From positions 1 through 64,000 of the IMG/VR virus record IMGVR_UViG_3300012078_000128: a stretch of DNA of 64,000 nucleotides. One strand, given 5' to 3'. Every line of letters starts with the position of its first letter. Position 1 is the first letter of the stretch. This stretch comes from a virus. This document shows positions 34,500-42,123 of the stretch, one piece after another. The translations under genes were made by a program, and so were the position numbers. The notes under the pieces were generated by a model, which saw nothing but the letters and a program-made list of their open reading frames with translations, did no database searches and had not been told where the DNA came from.

Positions 34500-35189
34500 T
34501 CACTTCTTCTTGTAATGTGTTAATGATATTGGTTTTTCATTTGGAATATCTATAAATGTTCTATTTTTCATATTAAATTTCTTTGCTTGGTTCACATGGC
34601 TGCCTATTGGTGACAGATGATATGACAAGTTCTCAACACTGAAGAAATTTTTATTTCGATCTCCCTTACAAAGATAAACCGATTCTGTAGCTTTCTCTAA
34701 TTCGTCATGAACCTTCATAATCGTTTGTTCATATAGAGGTTTATCAGTTATATTTTTAGGAATTAATCCTGTACATAAGAAAATACACCCGTTTGACTCT
34801 TGATTTGTACGAATTGCTCTTTCAATCGCAAGGCTATTTGATTTCATTGTCATTAGGTGTGTATTATTATGATTGGCATTAAGATCATCTAGAATTAGAT
34901 ATAGATCAGAAGACGTAGCTTCATAATAAGGATGAACGTTAACAACAGTAAAAGAACCAATTTTAAGATGCTTTAAATCATGATAAGCGATATAAGCACA
35001 ACTATTAACAGTTTTATCTGATTCATTTTCAGTGGCATGACTCGGATTCATTAAGATGAACAATGCGTTAGCTGTATAGTTATTGTCTAACTTACCAGTG
35101 AGGACTGACCTGAAGAAGTACGATGTGCGAGGAATTTTTCTATAATCACATTTGGTAATGTTTGATACATATGAAGGATATTTAACCAA
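34500..35189 (-). CDS. DUF1643-like protein (UDG-superfamily fold suspected)
   Basis: Strong SD GAGGAGGTG with TTG start. FILMNPSHATENESDKTVNSC resembles the DUF1643 MLNPS-x-AD...D-x-T block. Confidence 0.45.
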   Translation of the reverse strand: MVKYPSYVSNITKCDYRKIPRTSYFFRSVLTGKLDNNYTANALFILMNPSHATENESDKTVNSCAYIAYHDLKHLKIGSFTVVNVHPYYEATSSDLYLILDDLNANHNNTHLMTMKSNSLAIERAIRTNQESNGCIFLCTGLIPKNITDKPLYEQTIMKVHDELEKATESVYLCKGDRNKNFFSVENLSYHLSPIGSHVNQAKKFNMKNRTFIDIPNEKPISLTHYKKK

Positions 35190-35290
35190 GATGACACCTC
35201 CTCAAAAATAAAAGTTAATAATATTATAGTTGGACTGTAAGATAATTGGAAGTGAAGTGCTTATTGATAAATAAATTCAATTAACTGGAC

Positions 35291-35707
35291 GTGAGAGTAT
35301 TGATTGAAGCATACAGAGAATTCTTACAGAAGCAAGACGTACTTCCAATGGAAAACTGGAATGTATTTATATCTGAACATCAAATACCTATGCAGCCTAA
35401 TGTGAAAAATCATCCTCACACTATGATAATGAGGCAACAAGGCAAAGATACTGATGGTGGAGTATACGTTTATTTTGATAATGAAACTTGTTTATATATT
35501 GGGGAATCTAAAGTTTTAGGTAGCAGATTTAAGGATCATTATAATGCTTCTTGGAAAACAAACCATAAGTTACATCAATTCTTTAGTCGATATAGAAAGC
35601 CGTTAACAGTAAGATGGATAAAAATTGAAAACGTCTTTGACAGGCGAACAATAGAAGCAATGTTGACTAGGATTTATAAACCAACCTATATTGACTTTAA
35701 AACATAA
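35291..35707 (+). CDS. GIY-YIG nuclease-domain protein
   Basis: GGVYVYFDNETCLYIGESKVLGSRFKDHY fits the GIY...YIG...R...H pattern. Start uncertain (no clear SD). Confidence 0.5.
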   Translation: MRVLIEAYREFLQKQDVLPMENWNVFISEHQIPMQPNVKNHPHTMIMRQQGKDTDGGVYVYFDNETCLYIGESKVLGSRFKDHYNASWKTNHKLHQFFSRYRKPLTVRWIKIENVFDRRTIEAMLTRIYKPTYIDFKT

Positions 35708-35867: not shown

Positions 35868-36038
35868 ATGTCATTAATGAGGATTTCGGGTACTGATATA
35901 TTCACAAAAGAGTATGGGTCTATTATGTTTGACCCACGTAAGGATGTAGTAAGTATTCATCAAAGGGAAGAATCAATCAAAGTATGTGTTAATGAGGAAT
36001 GTGCAAATATCAGTCGTGAGGATTTAAAAATTAGGTAG
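35868..36038 (+). CDS. Small hypothetical protein (56 aa)
   Basis: Own translation MSLMRISGTDIFTKEYGSIMFDPRKD... GGGAGG lies 11 nt upstream. Confidence 0.35.
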   Translation: MSLMRISGTDIFTKEYGSIMFDPRKDVVSIHQREESIKVCVNEECANISREDLKIR

Positions 36039-36051
36039 GAGGATTTATATT

Positions 36052-36852
36052 ATGATAAATTGCCATTGTCATACTGACTATTCTAACATCAGACTTTTAG
36101 ATGCTTTGCAATCTGTAGAAGAATTAATTATAACATCACATGAAATGGGCATGAAAGGCGTGGCGATTACGGAGCACGAAAGCGTTAGCTCTCATCCGAA
36201 AGCTTTAAGGACGGTAAGAGAACTGAAGAAAAAGAAAATAATCCCCGAAGATTTCACTCTTATTCTTGGAAACGAGCTATACTTATGCCCCGATTTAGAA
36301 TCAGTAAAAGATAATTATAAATCAGGAGAGACTAAGTTTCCCCACTTCTTAGTTTTAAGCAAAGACCTAATCGGACACGAACAGTTACGAACTTTGAGTA
36401 GTCGTGCATGGTCAAGAAGTTTTTACACAGGTCTTATGGAAAGAGTCCCTACACTTTATTCAGACTTAGAGGAAGTAGTTAAACCAAACAAAGGACATCT
36501 TATTGCCTCGTCTGCTTGCTTAGGAAGTGCAGTCAATATTCACTTGTTAGCAATAAAAGAAGCAGAAAAAACCAGTAACCACCCTAAAGCTAATTACCAT
36601 AAACAAGAATTACATAAATTCATTCTATGGTGCATTGATATATTTGGTCAAGATCACTTCTTTATTGAGTTGCAACCTGCATTAAGCGAAGAGCAAGTTT
36701 ACTGTAATAAGAAGCTTGTTGATATTGCTGACCATTATGGACTAAAACGAATAGTAACAACAGATGCTCACTATGGACGACCAGAAGACAGAGACATCCA
36801 TGAAGCTTTTCTTAATGCCAAGCAAGGCGAGAGAGAGGTAGCGCAATTTTAT
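36052..36852 (+). CDS. DNA polymerase III alpha (DnaE-type, YorL-like), exon 1 (PHP domain)
   Basis: INCHCHTDYSNIRLLDA, AITEHES and VTTDAHY are PHP motifs. Polymerase-like sequence ends at ...GEREVAQFY. The ORF-track tail to 36906 reads into the intron. Boundary is +/- about 10 nt. Confidence 0.8.
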
Positions 36853-37310
36853 AGGTTTTGTGAGCGAGAAAACCCACTATTTTTATGGTGGGATGTTAGC
36901 CCATAAATAGACTGTAAGAATGTAGGGAAACTTGCATTTAGCGACTATGTAATTACTCATATAGTCCAACTAAGAAACTGAATTGCTGGAAACTCGTAAA
37001 GCTAGCTAAACTACAACATAGGGATATTTAAACCCAAGTGTGAATGTTGCGAAAGCAGAAAAAATTAGTTAGATGACATAAGGTTAAATCCTACGTGTTG
37101 AACAATCGAAAATCAGCAGCCAAGCCTAGAAATAGGAAGGTTCAACGACTATTCCTCGTGAAGGAAGTACACACAAGCGTGTGGAAGTGGTTTCGCCGTA
37201 CTGGGTAAGGCCAACGGATAAGATATAGTCTGTGCTTGTGCGAAAGCACAAGAAGTTCATAAGAGAACTGCATAGGGATTAGCGAACTTATGTGAACATA
37301 CTCTACATGA
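36853..37310 (+). ncRNA. Group I intron catalytic core (candidate)
   Basis: AAGATATAGTC (37220-37230) matches the J8/7-P7 signature, and AGACT at 36909-36913 can pair with it. GAAA-capped stems at 37048-37057, 37125-37136 and 37235-37252. Further hairpins at 36873-36892 and 36942-36965. No ORF. Confidence 0.6.
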
Positions 37311-37383
37311 TAAAGTCTAAAAAGTTTTAATATTTGTGTATCAAAGTATTGATTTCATACACAACTTGATGTACAATAAGTAT

Positions 37384-37785
37384 ATGAGTAACGAATACAG
37401 ATATTCAAAAACAACTGTATCGTTAATCAATTACCACTTTGTTTTTTGCCCAAGATATCGTCGGAAAATATTTGAGAATTCCGAAGTTGATACTAGATTT
37501 AAAGCCATTGTTTCAGAAATATGTTCTGATAACGAGTGGACAATCCTAGCAATAGAAACAGATAAAGATCACTGTCATCTTTTTGTGAATGTGCAACCTA
37601 CATTTTCGCCCTCTGACATAATGAAGACGATAAAAGGTATATCTTCACGAGAATTAAGACAAGAATTTGAACATCTAAGTAAAATGCCTAGTGTTTGGAC
37701 GCGATCATTCTTTGTTTCAACTGCTGGAAATGTATCTAGTGAAACCATCAAGCGATATGTTGAGAATCAAAGAACAAGATATTGA
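37384..37785 (+). CDS. tnpA: IS200/IS605 Y1 (HUH) transposase TnpA
   Basis: MSNEYRYSKTTVSLINYHFVFCPRYRRKIF, HUH motif HCHLFV, catalytic-Tyr region SSETIKRYVENQ. Confidence 0.9.
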   Translation: MSNEYRYSKTTVSLINYHFVFCPRYRRKIFENSEVDTRFKAIVSEICSDNEWTILAIETDKDHCHLFVNVQPTFSPSDIMKTIKGISSRELRQEFEHLSKMPSVWTRSFFVSTAGNVSSETIKRYVENQRTRY

Positions 37786-37807
37786 TTACGTTAAGGAGGT
37801 GACAGAA

Positions 37808-38926
37808 ATGAAGAAAGCTCATAAAATCAGAATTTATCCGAATACAAGACAGCAAATTCAAATTCAAAAAACATTTGGATGTGTAAGATTCTACTGGAAT
37901 TTTCTATTGGATCAACGAATGACAAACTACAAAAACAAACAAGAAAACAAAAACTATCAAGAAGATAAAACGACATATGCAGCTTTAAAGAAACAAGAAA
38001 CTTATTCTTGGCTAAAAGAAGTGGAAGCTCAACCATTAAGTCAAATTACAATGGATTTGAGAAAAGCATATAAAAATACGTTCACATCTGGATTCGGATT
38101 CCCTAAGTTTAAGAGTAAAAAACACTCGAAAAAAGCATATAGAACAGCTGTGGGGATGAAGGTAAATGGTAGGTATTGTTATGTTTCAAAAGTAGGTTGG
38201 ATAAAAATGGCTGAAACATTACGCTTCAATGGTAAATTGATGAATGTAACAATCAGTCAAACGAAATCCAGAAAATATTTCGCTACTTTGTTAGTAGACA
38301 CAGAGAATTTAACAAAAGAAAAAGTTGAAAATACAATCGGATTAGATTTAGGGCTAACTCATTTCTGTATAACTTCCACAGGAGAAAAGATTGATAATAA
38401 AAAATTCTATCGTTCTCTTGAAAAACGTTTGGTAATTGAACAACGTAAACTATCTAAACGTTTAGAAGTAGCTAAAAAACATAATCGTAAGCTAGATGAT
38501 TGTAAAAACTACCAAAAACAAAGAGTTAAAGTTGCTCGTATACATGAACAGATTGCTAACCAAAGAAACAACTTTTTACACCAACTATCTTCAAAAATAA
38601 CTGACGAGAACCAAGTCATTTGTATTGAAGATTTGATTGTAAAAGAAATGGTTAAAAATTGTACACTATCGAAATCAATTTCTGATGTATCTTGGAGTGA
38701 ATTTGTTAGACAATTACAATACAAGTCAGACTGGAAAGGTCGCACCTTAATTAAGGTAGATAGATTCTTCCCTAGTTCACAAAAATGTTCTTCATGTGGC
38801 CAGATTGATGGCAAGAAAGCATTAGACATTCGTGAATGGATTTGTTCAAATTGTGGCATAGTTCATGATAGAGATATTAATGCAAGTATAAATATTAAAA
38901 CCGAAGGACTTTCGGGGATAGCTTAG
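37808..38926 (+). CDS. tnpB: TnpB (OrfB_IS605) RNA-guided RuvC nuclease
   Basis: The ATG at 37808 follows AAGGAGGTG. RuvC-I IGLDLGLTHF, RuvC-II ICIEDL, zinc finger CSSCG...CSNCG, RuvC-III DRDINASINI. Confidence 0.9.
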   Translation: MKKAHKIRIYPNTRQQIQIQKTFGCVRFYWNFLLDQRMTNYKNKQENKNYQEDKTTYAALKKQETYSWLKEVEAQPLSQITMDLRKAYKNTFTSGFGFPKFKSKKHSKKAYRTAVGMKVNGRYCYVSKVGWIKMAETLRFNGKLMNVTISQTKSRKYFATLLVDTENLTKEKVENTIGLDLGLTHFCITSTGEKIDNKKFYRSLEKRLVIEQRKLSKRLEVAKKHNRKLDDCKNYQKQRVKVARIHEQIANQRNNFLHQLSSKITDENQVICIEDLIVKEMVKNCTLSKSISDVSWSEFVRQLQYKSDWKGRTLIKVDRFFPSSQKCSSCGQIDGKKALDIREWICSNCGIVHDRDINASINIKTEGLSGIA

Positions 38927-38962
38927 TAAATTTAGTGCCGTTAGGTGCTATTACCTAAGAAC

Positions 38963-38983
38963 CCCACGACTTTAGTCGTGTGG
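38963..38983 (+). repeat. IS right-end subterminal hairpin (also the 3' end of the predicted omega-RNA scaffold)
   Basis: CCACGAC-TTTA-GTCGTG(T)GG. A related CCCAC...GTGGG hairpin sits about 20 nt inside the left end (36873-36892). Confidence 0.55.
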
Positions 38984-38991
38984 AGTGTCAG

Positions 38992-41900
38992 GAAGCTTGC
39001 TTTATTCAAAAGGAAGAAGAAATTTATGAACGCATGAATTATCTACCTAAAGAAATTATCATGGAAGCTATTGAAAACACGCTGCTTATTGGCAAGATGT
39101 GCGAAGATTACACTATTGAGCAGCCAACTATTATTCCAAAGATTGAACTTCCTGAATTCGAAATAGAACATCTATTCAAACCTGCTTACGAGAAATATGA
39201 ATACATTGAGAAAACGGCTAATAGTAAATATAAGCAAGATAGGTACGCTATGTATCTCATTGAAAAAGGTTTTCGGGACAAATTAATGAAGCCAGAATTA
39301 ACACATGAAAAATTCCATCAAATTCTTGCTCGAATTAATGTTGAATTAGGTGAGCTTTGGCAACTTAGCGAAGAGCTTAATCAACGGATGACTGACTACT
39401 ACATTTCAGTCAGGCAATTAATATCCATAATTTGGAAAGATGACTGTGGGAATAGTATCGTTCCAGCAGGTAGAGGAAGTTCTTCAGGATTTATTTTGAA
39501 TTTTTTATGGGACATAACTCAGATTAATCCTTTGGAGTATGGTGTAGAAATTCCACATTGGCGACACTTGCACCATAGTCGCCCTGATATTGGTGCATTA
39601 GATATTGACATTGATACTGAATCGAACAAAAGACAAAGAATACTTAAATCACTAAAAAGAAAGTTTGGCGAAGAAAGAATTCTACAGGTTGCTACGTTTG
39701 GCACACAAGGCTCACGTTCTGCCATCCTAACAGCTTGCAGGGGGCTTGGGTTAGATAGTGATATTGGTCTTCATCTTAGTGGCTTAATCCCATTTGAACG
39801 TGGACAAAACTGGAGCATTAAAGATTGTCTGTATGGGAATACAGAAAAAAATAGAAAGCCAGTTAAGGAATTCATAAATGAAATAGATAAATATCCTAAG
39901 CTACAGTCCATGATTGAAAAAGTTGAGGGTAAGATTGATAAACGAAGCATCCATGCAGGTGGAATTATTCTTTTCCCTGAAAACTATGTAAAGTCTAATG
40001 CTATGATGAAAGCACCGAATGGTACACCTATTACTCAATTTTCATTAGATGACTGCCAAAGTGTAGGAAATATAAAATATGATCTCTTAACAATTGAGGG
40101 AGCAGATCGAATAAGAGCTACTTTCGATTTGTTACTAAAACATGGTGAAATTGAATGGAAAGGTTCTTTGAAAGCAACTTATGATTATTACCTACATCCA
40201 GATAACATTGATATGGAAAATCCTGAGCTTTACAAAATGCTCGGTAGTGGCGAAGTAGCTTCACTTTTTCAGTTCAGCACGGAACAGGGTATCCAAGCAG
40301 CGACAAAAACAAAGCCTACTAATCTAATTGAGACAGCAGCAGCTAACAGTCTTATGCGCTTAATGTCTGATTCAGGTGGAGAACAACCAATAGACACATT
40401 CGTAAGATATAAAAATGATATTAGCTTGTGGTATGAAGAAATGAAGAGGCATGGATTAAATGAAAATGAAATTTTAGTCATGGAAGAATACTTATTACCA
40501 CTTTCAGGAATTTCCGATACACAGGAAGTTGTTATGCGACTTGCTATGGATAATCGGATAGCTGGTTTTGATATAATTGAGTCCAATAAATTGCGGAAAT
40601 TAATCGCTAAGCGAGATGAAAAACTCTTAGAAGTAATGGAAAATGAATTTTATTCTAAAGGGCTCTCTCTAGGAAATAGAAAAGAAATTCTTTCGTATGT
40701 TTGGGATGTTCAAATCAAAAGAATGCTTGGTTATGCGTTTAGTATCTGTCACACCATTTCATATTCGATAATTGCTTTACAAGAACTTACTCTTAACTAT
40801 AACTATAATCCTATCTATTGGCAGACTGCATGTTTGTCAGTTAACTCTGGTAGCCTAGAAGTTGATGAAGATACTAAATCATCCACAGGAGCTTACGGGA
40901 AGGTGGCTTCAGCTATTTCTGAAATACAGCAATCGGGAGTTACAGTTTCTTTGCCTGACATCAATAAAGCAGAGTACAGCTTCACTCCAGATGTTGAAAA
41001 CAATAAAATTATATTTGGTTTACGCGGTTTAATTGGTGTCGGAGACTCCGTTGTTGATACTATAATCCAAAACAGGCCGTACACATCATTTGAGGACTTT
41101 TATTCACGTCTATATACTACCAAACTAGTTACCAATTCACATATGGTACAGCTAATTAAAGCTGGCTGCTTTGACGAATTTGATGACCGTACGACAACTA
41201 TGCAGAAATATGTTAATCTCACATTTTCACCAAATAAGAAACTTTCTACTGCTAACCTAAAGAATTTAATCAATCTGAATCTTATTCCAAATAAATATGC
41301 CCTACATATTAGATATTATAAATTTAAAGAACATATTTATTCCCGTTCAATTGGCAAATTGAATGATCGCAAAACTAAAAACCGACTATTCCTTTTAGAT
41401 AATGTATCAACTGAATTTCTAATTGAACATTTCTCAGAGGATTCTATTGTAGATTATCGTGATGGGCAACCTATTATTCTTGAAGCATTGTTTGATAAAG
41501 AATACGACAAGAAAATGGAAGTTATTAAGGAGTGGTTAAAAGAAGATTCAACTCTACACATATATAACAATAAACTTAGAGAACAACATTGGATTGATAC
41601 AACTAAAGGTATTGATAATGTTTCTGCTTGGGAAATGTCGAGTTTATCCTATTATAATTCACCGCATGAATTAGCTAATGTAGATAAAGTTAAATATGGT
41701 ATCAAAGACTTCTACTCACTTCCTGAAAATCCTCTAGTAGTTAATGAATACGAATGGGGCAATCGTAAAATGAAGGAGTTTGATATTTGTCGCATTGCTG
41801 GAACTGTATTGGACAAGGATAAAAATAAACATACTGTTACAATATTGACTACAGATGGAGTTGTCACATGCAAATTTTATGGTAATCAATACAGTAGCTT

Positions 41901-42123
41901 GGACAGACAATTATCAGTAAAAGGCTCAGATGGGAAGAAGCAAGTAATTGAAAAAGGCTGGTTTGTACGTGGCAACCTTGTAATTCTTACAGGTTATAGA
42001 CGTGGCAATCAATTTATACCTAAACGTTACAAAAATTCCGTATATAATACTACAATTGCTTTGATTGACAACGTATTAGACAATGGAGAACTTAGCCTTA
42101 TAACTGAACGAGCAGAAATATAA
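38992..42123 (+). CDS. DNA polymerase III alpha (YorL-like), exon 2
   Basis: Polymerase-like sequence resumes at EACFIQKEEEIY and continues for more than 1000 aa (fingers/palm regions, C-terminal OB-like). The ORF-track GTG at 38980 lies inside the IS right-end hairpin. Confidence 0.8.
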   Translation, partial: EACFIQKEEEIYERMNYLPKEIIMEAIENTLLIGKMCEDYTIEQPTIIPKIELPEFEIEHLFKPAYEKYEYIEKTANSKYKQDRYAMYLIEKGFRDKLMKPELTHEKFHQILARINVELGELWQLSEELNQRMTDYYISVRQLISIIWKDDCGNSIVPAGRGSSSGFILNFLWDITQINPLEYGVEIPHWRHLHHSRPDIGALDIDIDTESNKRQRILKSLKRKFGEERILQVATFGTQGSRSAILTACRGLGLDSDIGLHLSGLIPFERGQNWSIKDCLYGNTEKNRKPVKEFINEIDKYPKLQSMIEKVEGKIDKRSIHAGGIILFPENYVKSNAMMKAPNGTPITQFSLDDCQSVGNIKYDLLTIEGADRIRATFDLLLKHGEIEWKGSLKATYDYYLHPDNIDMENPELYKMLGSGEVASLFQFSTEQGIQAATKTKPTNLIETAAANSLMRLMSDSGGEQPIDTFVRYKNDISLWYEEMKRHGLNENEILVMEEYLLPLSGISDTQEVVMRLAMDNRIAGFDIIESNKLRKLIAKRDEKLLEVMENEFYSKGLSLGNRKEILSYVWDVQIKRMLGYAFSICHTISYSIIALQELTLNYNYNPIYWQTACLSVNSGSLEVDEDTKSSTGAYGKVASAISEIQQSGVTVSLPDINKAEYSFTPDVENNKIIFGLRGLIGVGDSVVDTIIQNRPYTSFEDFYSRLYTTKLVTNSHMVQLIKAGCFDEFDDRTTTMQKYVNLTFSPNKKLSTANLKNLINLNLIPNKYALHIRYYKFKEHIYSRSIGKLNDRKTKNRLFLLDNVSTEFLIEHFSEDSIVDYRDGQPIILEALFDKEYDKKMEVIKEWLKEDSTLHIYNNKLREQHWIDTTKGIDNVSAWEMSSLSYYNSPHELANVDKVKYGIKDFYSLPENPLVVNEYEWGNRKMKEFDICRIAGTVLDKDKNKHTVTILTTDGVVTCKFYGNQYSSLDRQLSVKGSDGKKQVIEKGWFVRGNLVILTGYRRGNQFIPKRYKNSVYNTTIALIDNVLDNGELSLITERAEI

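Follow-up and report, generated by a model that had tools for sequence, protein, structure and literature searches.

The virus genome IMGVR_UViG_3300012078_000128 carries a DNA polymerase gene divided by an insert with tnpA and tnpB genes, and the question raised by this locus is whether the TnpB nuclease encoded there could be guided by the adjoining polymerase sequence to alleles of the same gene that lack the insert. A preliminary description of this DNA had proposed such targeting, with homing or the killing of competitors as the outcome. We analyzed the window (the whole stretch of 64,000 nucleotides, positions 1 to 64,000 of the record; positions are those of the window unless stated otherwise) and found that the insert is an EfISt1-family group A (IS200/IS605-type) IStron as judged by class traits, size and open reading frame (ORF) content (Table 1). 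The gene that it splits is yorL-like, encodes DNA polymerase III alpha and belongs to an SPbeta-like phage. From the sequence, the element has exact ends, an NTTAT motif at its left end, a full group I core, intact tnpA and tnpB genes and a covarying right end of about 98 nt. We consider it likely that the element is an autonomous group A IStron whose transcripts would be either spliced or turned into a TnpB guide RNA aimed at TTTAT plus guide in the element-free polymerase gene.

Table 1. Features of the IStron and of the polymerase gene that it interrupts (positions in the window; a slash marks a splice or insertion junction).
Feature	Position	Strand	Description
Exon 1, yorL-like DNA polymerase III alpha gene	36052-36852	+	267 codons; PHP domain (Pfam PHP 1.3e-21)
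TTTAT	36848-36852	+	TnpA target motif, predicted TnpB target-adjacent motif (TAM) and 5' strand of candidate helix P1; last U is the 5' splice site
Complete group A (IS200/IS605-type) IStron, EfISt1 family	36853-38991	+	2139 bp; sense orientation in the polymerase gene
Left-end subterminal hairpin	36869-36892	+	CCCAC...GTGGG (hairpin 36873-36892) with the preceding invariant AAAA
Group I intron catalytic core	36877-37252	+	P2-P9, including the core motif AAGATATAGTC; Rfam RF00028
Candidate internal guide sequence	36912-36918	+	CUGUAAG; pairs with TTAT/AG to form P1
tnpA, Y1 (HUH) transposase	37384-37785	+	133 aa, intact; Pfam Y1_Tnp 3.1e-41, full profile 1-121
tnpB, RNA-guided nuclease family	37808-38926	+	372 aa, intact; stop codon TAG at 38924-38926
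Predicted omega-RNA scaffold	38894-38991	+	About 98 nt; coincides with transposon right end and intron 3' terminal region
Stem-loops (SL) of the scaffold	SL1 38901-38915; SL2 38922-38959 (inner stem 38933-38950); SL3 38961-38986	+	RNAalifold
Predicted guide	38992-39007	+	GAAGCTTGCTTTATTC; first 16 nt of exon 2, directly after the conserved right end
Exon 2, polymerase gene	38992-42123	+	1043 codons and stop; Pfam DNA_pol3_alpha, finger, HHH_6

Two independent mappings place the ends of the element on the same bonds

Of the annotated relatives, the DNA polymerase YorL of Bacillus phage SPbeta is closest to the split gene. Exon 1 and YorL shared 65-66% identity across residues 1-267, where the homology ends at ...AQFY. 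Exon 1 closes with ...GEREVAQFY (36852), exon 2 opens with EACFIQKEEEIYERMNY (38992), and the joined flanks read ...EVAQFY/EACFIQ..., as compared to ...GEREVDSFYEACFVQNVDEIHERMDY (...EVDSFY/EACFVQ...) in the uninterrupted gene of SPbeta. Since the joined flanks are colinear with YorL, the insert was delimited to 2139 bp at the positions in Table 1. Joining the exons in silico produced a YorL-like frame of 1310 aa (1306 aa in SPbeta YorL), with zero duplicated bases where the flanks rejoin, i.e., no target-site duplication. Left unspliced, the frame of exon 1 (ORF 36052-36906) continues to a stop codon at 36904-36906.

Family copies of the element were found by a TnpB search, and the TnpB proteins of these copies were 79-84% identical to that of the window. 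End-to-end matches of 78-82% nucleotide identity were obtained in Enterococcus, in other Firmicutes and in E. faecium plasmids; the full-length plasmid matches (78.5-78.8%) are annotated with tnpA and tnpB. The sources of the copies were several Enterococcus species, Paenibacillus, Peptostreptococcus, Caryophanon, contigs labelled as Listeria phage and three IMG/VR virus contigs. All 14 aligned copies start with AG..G(C/T)GAGAAAA directly after NTTAT, a motif in which TTAT is invariant and N is A in seven copies, T in five, C in one and G in one; in the window, the first bases AG (36853-36854) directly follow TTTAT. At the right end, 12 of 13 aligned copies stop at ...GTGGAGTGTCAG (...GTGTCAG), the bases with which the element of the window ends at 38991, and one copy lying at a contig end reads ...TCAA. 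The flanks of the 11 copies that continue past this point are unrelated to one another. The exon-junction homology and the alignment of copies, two independent lines, agree to the base, and the ends so defined by sequence lie far beyond chance. As the two mappings agree, a single bond, 38991/38992, is at once the 3' splice site, the right end of the transposon and the predicted junction of scaffold and guide. The ends, the left-flank motif TTTAT and the coincidence of splice site and scaffold/guide junction are thus where the preliminary description had put them, and the exon 2 sequence that it had named as guide template directly adjoins the conserved right end.

The first exon base after TCAG was G in 9 of the 12 copies with a known flank, the flanks being otherwise unrelated; this may reflect a weak preference of splicing, transposition or TnpB on the 3' side. 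The element is without terminal inverted repeats, and similar subterminal hairpins of the form CCCAC...GTGGG lie at both ends (36873-36892 and 38961-38986). The stem of the left hairpin, which resembles the right-end hairpin, showed compensatory changes across copies (CCCACTA/TGGTGGG versus CCCACGG/CCGTGTGG, the slash here separating the two strands). By analogy with IS608 and ISDra2 it is presumed to be the TnpA recognition site, and the invariant AAAA before it would presumably fit the IS608 rule for recognition of TTAT-type targets.

The class assignment was made from three sets of traits. Group A IStrons were described as combinations of an IA2 intron with IS200/IS605 ORFs that insert after TTGAT, ATTAT or TTTAT and end in TCAG (Tourasse 2014, PMC4227781), and EfISt1 of Enterococcus faecium has 2140 bp with ORF A and ORF B (same survey). 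The element of the window is 2139 bp long, encodes a Y1 TnpA as ORF A and TnpB as ORF B, belongs to a family inserted after ATTAT or TTTAT, terminates in TCAG and has a 5' group I intron, although the IA2 subclass is the published trait and the match obtained here is to the general model RF00028. Together with the full-length matches in E. faecium, these traits led us to file it as an EfISt1-family group A IStron; the assignment runs via copies in E. faecium that agree in size and composition and not via the published EfISt1 sequence itself. The copy in the window differs from EfISt1 in being about 21% diverged and in lying in a replication gene of an SPbeta-like phage instead of an enterococcal chromosomal or plasmid gene.

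The insert carries a group I intron core, and copies of its family interrupt open frames in the sense orientation

From 5' to 3', the insert consists of the group I core, tnpA, tnpB and 65 non-coding bases that end in TCAG. The core gave a full-length match to Rfam RF00028 (model positions 1-253; 60.8 bits against a gathering threshold of 50; E 4.7e-15). This score was obtained when 511 nt (36830-37340) were scanned alone, while an E-value scan of 3.6 kb (36000-39600) returned no match; a long stretch that gives no Rfam match may thus still contain a phage intron of the IA2 type.

For helix P1, TTAT/AG at the 5' junction is complementary to an invariant CUGUAA (36912-36917) in all 14 copies; the pair at the splice site is a U-G wobble. 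TGTAAG is invariant in the 14 copies and the six proposed pairs hold in 13 or 14 of them, compared to 21-61% paired when the strands are slid against each other. The pairing of CUGUAAG with TTAT/AG is therefore a good candidate for P1 and consistent with the sequences, but both sides are invariant, so covariation cannot prove it. A P1 formed with GUGAG (36860-36864) was considered and rejected, as it fits the copy in the window and some others and is not conserved in the family. Within the loop of the left hairpin (36880-36890), UUUUUAUGG imitates the end of the 5' exon (UUUUAU/AG), and its partner in the Rfam alignment is the GUAAGAA stretch (36913-36922) proposed here as internal guide sequence. 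This pairing is a possible alternative to P1 and is less good in other copies (TTTTAAT).

If the 5' 400 nt held no working ribozyme, the insert would be an ordinary IS200/IS605 insertion by which the polymerase gene is inactivated, and the phage would be dead or defective. The empty result of the first 3.6-kb Rfam scan would agree with this, but the focused scan gave a full-length match above the curated threshold, the ends carry the U at position -1 and the terminal G, and the phage record is a complete virus genome of 118 kb with terminal repeats. Moreover, all 13 copies with both ends mapped (that of the window included) lie in the sense orientation with an open frame continuing across the joined flanks, which is unexpected for a non-splicing insertion sequence. 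We regard a plain insertion as highly improbable.

Other phage genes are interrupted in the same manner. In two virus contigs, EfISt1-family IStrons interrupt the genes for a large terminase and for a DnaG-type primase (IMG/VR loci L029, 2044-4184, and L030, 2042-4184; TnpB 81% identical), and the nuclease domain of the terminase (TerL) continues across the junction. Given the terminase and primase insertions, the family has repeatedly entered essential phage genes. Several genomes hold two copies at different sites (L008 and L011 in one metagenome-assembled genome of Enterococcus; L005 and L015; L012 and L016). Five copies are derivatives of 1.72-1.83 kb in which most of tnpA is lost and the ribozyme, tnpB and both ends are kept; copies L009, L014 and L017 were grouped with these multi-copy and tnpA-deleted cases. 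In the published pattern, tnpB alone is never the part that is lost (PMC13565253), and the tnpA-less derivatives match it. Elsewhere in the 118-kb phage genome, neither a solo right end nor a second tnpB of the EfISt1 family was present.

TnpB is intact and the right end has the stem-loop layout of a predicted omega-RNA scaffold

The translation of tnpA contains the HxH motif (DHCHLF) and the C-terminal tyrosine (KRYVENQ). TnpB has the Pfam domains HTH_OrfB_IS605, OrfB_IS605 and Cas12f1-like_TNB, and its residues 3-368 align with ISDra2 TnpB (8BF8/8EXA/8H1J; E 4e-67), with the RuvC D-E-D columns (GLDLG, IEDL, HDRD) and the CxxC pairs of the zinc finger (CSSCG...CSNCG) kept. Compared to 11 other copies, tnpB showed a ratio of nonsynonymous to synonymous divergence (dN/dS) of 0.05-0.11, with dS at 1.2-3.0 among the 12 full-length copies, i.e., with synonymous sites saturated. 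By these measures both genes are under purifying selection and, to judge from Pfam matches and catalytic residues, intact.

Against this background of saturation, the last 98 nt or so of the element are almost invariant. Synonymous differences in tnpB fall from 0.27-0.54 along the gene to 0.08 in the last 12 codons, and codons 363-372 are almost frozen. Conservation extends through the 65 non-coding bases between the tnpB stop codon and the right end (38927-38991). A consensus fold of the 13-sequence alignment had 99.7% of cells paired, compared to 30-52% when slid. Seven pairs showed double changes, and covariation was 0.254 as compared to 0.115 +/- 0.014 in shuffled alignments (reached by none of 500). 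Since the variable stem contains many G-U pairs, the structure appears to be kept at the level of RNA on the sense strand and not just as a DNA hairpin. SL3 is followed by the terminal GTCAG (GUCAG), in which 38991 is the omega-G. The scaffolds of IS605- and IS607-type omega-RNAs consist of three consecutive stem-loops directly upstream of the guide (Zedaveinyte 2023, bioRxiv 10.1101/2023.11.20.567912), and the three covarying stem-loops found here match that layout by sequence, in line with the earlier proposal of an omega-RNA scaffold made of the tnpB 3' end and the right end. No Rfam family matched the scaffold region. The pattern of conservation is better matched by about 98 nt of scaffold with a 16-nt guide, giving a core RNA of about 115 nt, than by the 150-250 nt of the preliminary description; a longer 5' extension free of constraint is possible.

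Several points weigh against reading the right end as an active guide-RNA scaffold. The pseudoknot between nexus and 3' end that is expected for omega-RNAs was weakly visible, with 3-5 pairs and a bulge, all invariant. The candidate found by eye joins loop GGACU (38906-38910) to AGU-G-UC (38984-38989) across the bulge, and its invariant bases show no covariation. Conservation of the right end is also demanded by the DNA hairpin for TnpA and by recognition of the 3' splice site, so that conservation alone is no proof of an omega-RNA. Nor is every TnpB active, as that of IS608 was inactive in published assays (PMC10055086), and competition between splicing and guide maturation has been demonstrated for IS607-type IStrons alone (bioRxiv 10.1101/2023.11.20.567912). 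Among the uninterrupted relatives of the polymerase gene, each mismatches the guide at four positions, the first at position 6 or 9, and four scans of viral and metagenome collections gave no empty-site allele with a matching target.

The element could accordingly be, by now, a self-splicing intron plus a transposon, with a TnpB that is inactive or makes no stable guide RNA here and a right end conserved for TnpA recognition and 3' splice-site selection alone. Three functions overlap on the same 100 nt or so, and conservation cannot separate them; the pseudoknot has no clear support, and the inactivity of IS608 TnpB provides a precedent. In published work, moreover, efficient splicing accompanied little omega-RNA, and an essential polymerase gene should favor efficient splicing. 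On the other side, TnpB is full length with its aligned catalytic and zinc residues kept, and strong purifying selection acts on it in 12 diverged copies. The covarying stem-loop SL2 contains many G-U pairs and is not part of the terminal hairpin that TnpA would be expected to use, and the tnpA-less derivatives retain tnpB together with the right end. On balance we think it unlikely that TnpB has no role at this locus.

The predicted guide would match the excision product of the phage itself

The length of the guide was taken from ISDra2 (about 16 nt) and CseIStron (about 18 nt). IS200/IS605 logic predicts a target made up of TTTAT and, directly behind it, GAAGCTTGCTTTATTC. Within the phage genome (118 kb), the 16-mer had one perfect match, its own template, and the next best sites carried 2-3 mismatches; at the occupied site, GTCAG and not NTTAT precedes the template. 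The guide itself contains another TTTAT (39002-39006), 10 nt into exon 2, which is potentially a second TnpA insertion site or TAM right beside the occupied one.

Comparison with related phages that lack the insertion, as the preliminary description had suggested, gave a less favorable result. All uninterrupted polymerase alleles compared keep GAAGC directly after the TAM position. In SPbeta and three uncultured relatives, the TAM is TTTAT and the mismatches to the guide lie at positions 6, 9, 12 and 13; the relative L025 also has TTTAT, with mismatches at 9, 12, 13 and 15; and the relative L023 has lost the TAM (TCTAT) and mismatches the guide at 6, 9, 13 and 15. ISDra2 requires about 12 matched TAM-proximal bases. 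Permissive binding has been noted by Meers et al. (PMC10055086). The exact 28-mer of the joined exons (empty site) had no match in viral contigs, the empty-site 24-mer had none in metagenome contigs, and a degenerate pattern of the polymerase context with TAM and 12-nt seed had none in either metagenome or viral contigs. Among sequencing runs, no RNA run was listed as containing this DNA, and the single DNA set listed, a set of contigs that is probably the source of the record, showed the occupied form only, with no joint across the element.

Because the relatives are mismatched and no perfect empty site was found, the excision product of the phage itself would be the sole assured target among the candidates. 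An identical sister phage without the IStron is a plausible destination for homing, and the killing of the known, more distant relatives is not supported. Of the targeting that was originally envisaged, the part directed at the unoccupied polymerase gene would thus apply to the phage's own excised copy, and the competitor-killing part is not supported; overall, the earlier interpretation is partly supported, with agreement at each point that sequence can test.

The mechanism that we favor follows the published behavior of IS200/IS605 elements and IStrons. Transcripts reading through the right end would meet either of two fates. In the first, the ribozyme would join ...UUUAU to GAAGCU... and restore the polymerase mRNA. 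In the second, TnpB would bind the stem-loops of the right end and retain the next 16 nt or so as a guide. The two fates would be mutually exclusive because splicing severs the scaffold from the guide. The TnpB-RNA complex would then cut DNA that reads TTTAT plus guide, a sequence that exists solely where the element is absent, and the occupied site would be protected because GTCAG instead of NTTAT precedes the guide there. The assured case would be the scarless donor joint left after excision by TnpA, at which recombination with another copy of the phage would restore the element; the same cut would be made in a co-infecting sister phage whose allele is identical but free of the IStron (homing). 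Cleavage of the scarless donor joint by TnpB, with the TnpA target by the left end as TAM, is published (Meers 2023, PMC10055086), and both the guide against the unoccupied allele and its competition with splicing are described for the class (bioRxiv 10.1101/2023.11.20.567912; Mortman & Sternberg 2026; review PMC13565253). The guide and target logic is thus published behavior of IStrons and not new biology.

A different use of the same guide would be competition between phages, by marker exclusion or competitor killing, with restoration of the own excised copy as a minor matter. The insertion site FY/EACF is conserved, TTTAT/GAAGC is kept in SPbeta, in phi3T-like phages and in several uncultured relatives, and intron-encoded phage nucleases are known to act in this way. 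Co-infected phages and plasmids are listed as a class of homing target in a review (PMC13565253), and copies of the family also lie in other phage contigs, within terminase and primase genes. These points are opposed by the four mismatches in each uninterrupted allele and the lost TAM in one, by the lack of any allele with a perfect 12-nt or 16-nt match in viral and metagenome contigs, and by the TnpA, which looks active and so makes homing for restoration the need to be assumed by default. We therefore regard competition as the main purpose of the guide with some doubt, as a minority possibility. The same grade is given to the related proposal that, when SPbeta-like phages co-infect, the element uses its exon-derived guide as a homing endonuclease directed by RNA, which would cut IStron-free sister alleles and drag flanking polymerase markers along: it is conceivable but rather doubtful.

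Relation to other IStrons and intron-encoded nucleases

The IS200/IS605-type IStrons of Clostridioides difficile (CdISt1/CdiIStrons) resemble the element of the window in architecture, in the coincidence of left and right ends with the splice sites, and in an omega-RNA predicted in the 3' region of tnpB with its guide directly after the 3' splice site. They differ in TAM (TTGAT, as compared to NTTAT in the family studied here) and in that none of the eight copies of strain 630 has a full-length TnpA, whereas the element of the window does. The IS607-type (group B) CboIStron and CseIStrons, studied by Zedaveinyte et al. (2023) and Mortman & Sternberg (2026), share the superposition of TAM, 5' splice site and left boundary, that of scaffold/guide junction, 3' splice site and right boundary, and the exclusion of guide maturation by splicing. 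In contrast, their TnpA is a serine recombinase, their TAM is TGGG, their 5' splice site carries G instead of U and their terminus reads CGG. Group B IStrons are also phage-borne (C. botulinum phages c-st and D-1873), and those found in phages in the 2014 survey were of group B alone (Tourasse 2014, PMC4227781). Experiments on IStrons used the IS607 type with its TGGG TAM; splicing and guide maturation were shown to exclude each other, and the guide of IStrons was described as beginning immediately behind the 3' splice site, while the mechanism for the IS200/IS605 type was stated as "hypothesized" (bioRxiv 10.1101/2023.11.20.567912).

ISDra2 (PDB 8BF8, 8EXA, 8H1J) is comparable in the whole-length TnpB alignment, in taking the guide from the right-end flank and in using the TnpA target as TAM; it differs in having no intron and a TTGAT TAM. 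Its TnpB has a C-terminal tail of about 35 residues encoded over the scaffold, whereas tnpB of the window is without this tail and stops 65 nt before the right end. The group I introns in the polymerase genes of SPO1 and SP82 carry the homing endonucleases I-HmuI and I-HmuII (see Goodrich-Blair & Shub 1996, cited in PMC13565253). Like them, the element of the window places a self-splicing intron in the polymerase gene of a Bacillus-type phage, with a nuclease that would be aimed at the intron-less allele; in their case a protein recognizes the target, whereas recognition by the IStron would go through a guide RNA that copies the 3' exon, and the IStron can also transpose.

Genomic surroundings

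The neighbors of the polymerase gene follow the SPbeta order, with a RecJ-like yorK before it and a 3D-domain yorM after it. Between the yorK-like gene and the polymerase gene lies an island (34500-35707) that is absent from SPbeta and contains a gene for a DUF1643 protein on the minus strand (7e-11) and a small gene for a GIY-YIG nuclease (3e-5). With such a free-standing nuclease of the homing type adjoining the intron-bearing polymerase gene, the region could have a second mobility route. Outside the window, a second group I intron without an ORF lies on the minus strand of the phage genome (genome positions 102684-102973; locus L004, about 1500-1800). It is 70% identical to the ribozyme core of the IStron (element positions 143-425), scored 40.7 bits with RF00028, below gathering, and sits between two minus-strand ORFs with no IStron right end or tnpB attached. 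Promoter-like sites were not above background (18 versus 12.7 +/- 4.6), and a TTGATT-17-TACAAT site before tnpA (37349-37377) carries no weight.

Significance

The element leaves the known working of IStrons unchanged and is in this respect not surprising. What it provides is a clean, complete, phage-borne IStron of the IS200/IS605 type, with TnpA, TnpB, ribozyme and right end intact, in an essential replication gene; and this is the type for which the conflict between splicing and guide RNA has hitherto been hypothesized. With TAM, guide and splice sites mapped, it is a convenient model for asking whether that conflict exists in IS605-type IStrons and whether RNA-guided homing takes place between phage genomes. 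If the rather doubtful use for homing between co-infecting phages were to hold, the element would do by means of a programmable RNA what homing endonucleases made of protein do in the introns of phage polymerase genes, and the repeated insertions in terminase, primase and polymerase genes would reflect phage-borne spread of the family across genera of Firmicutes.

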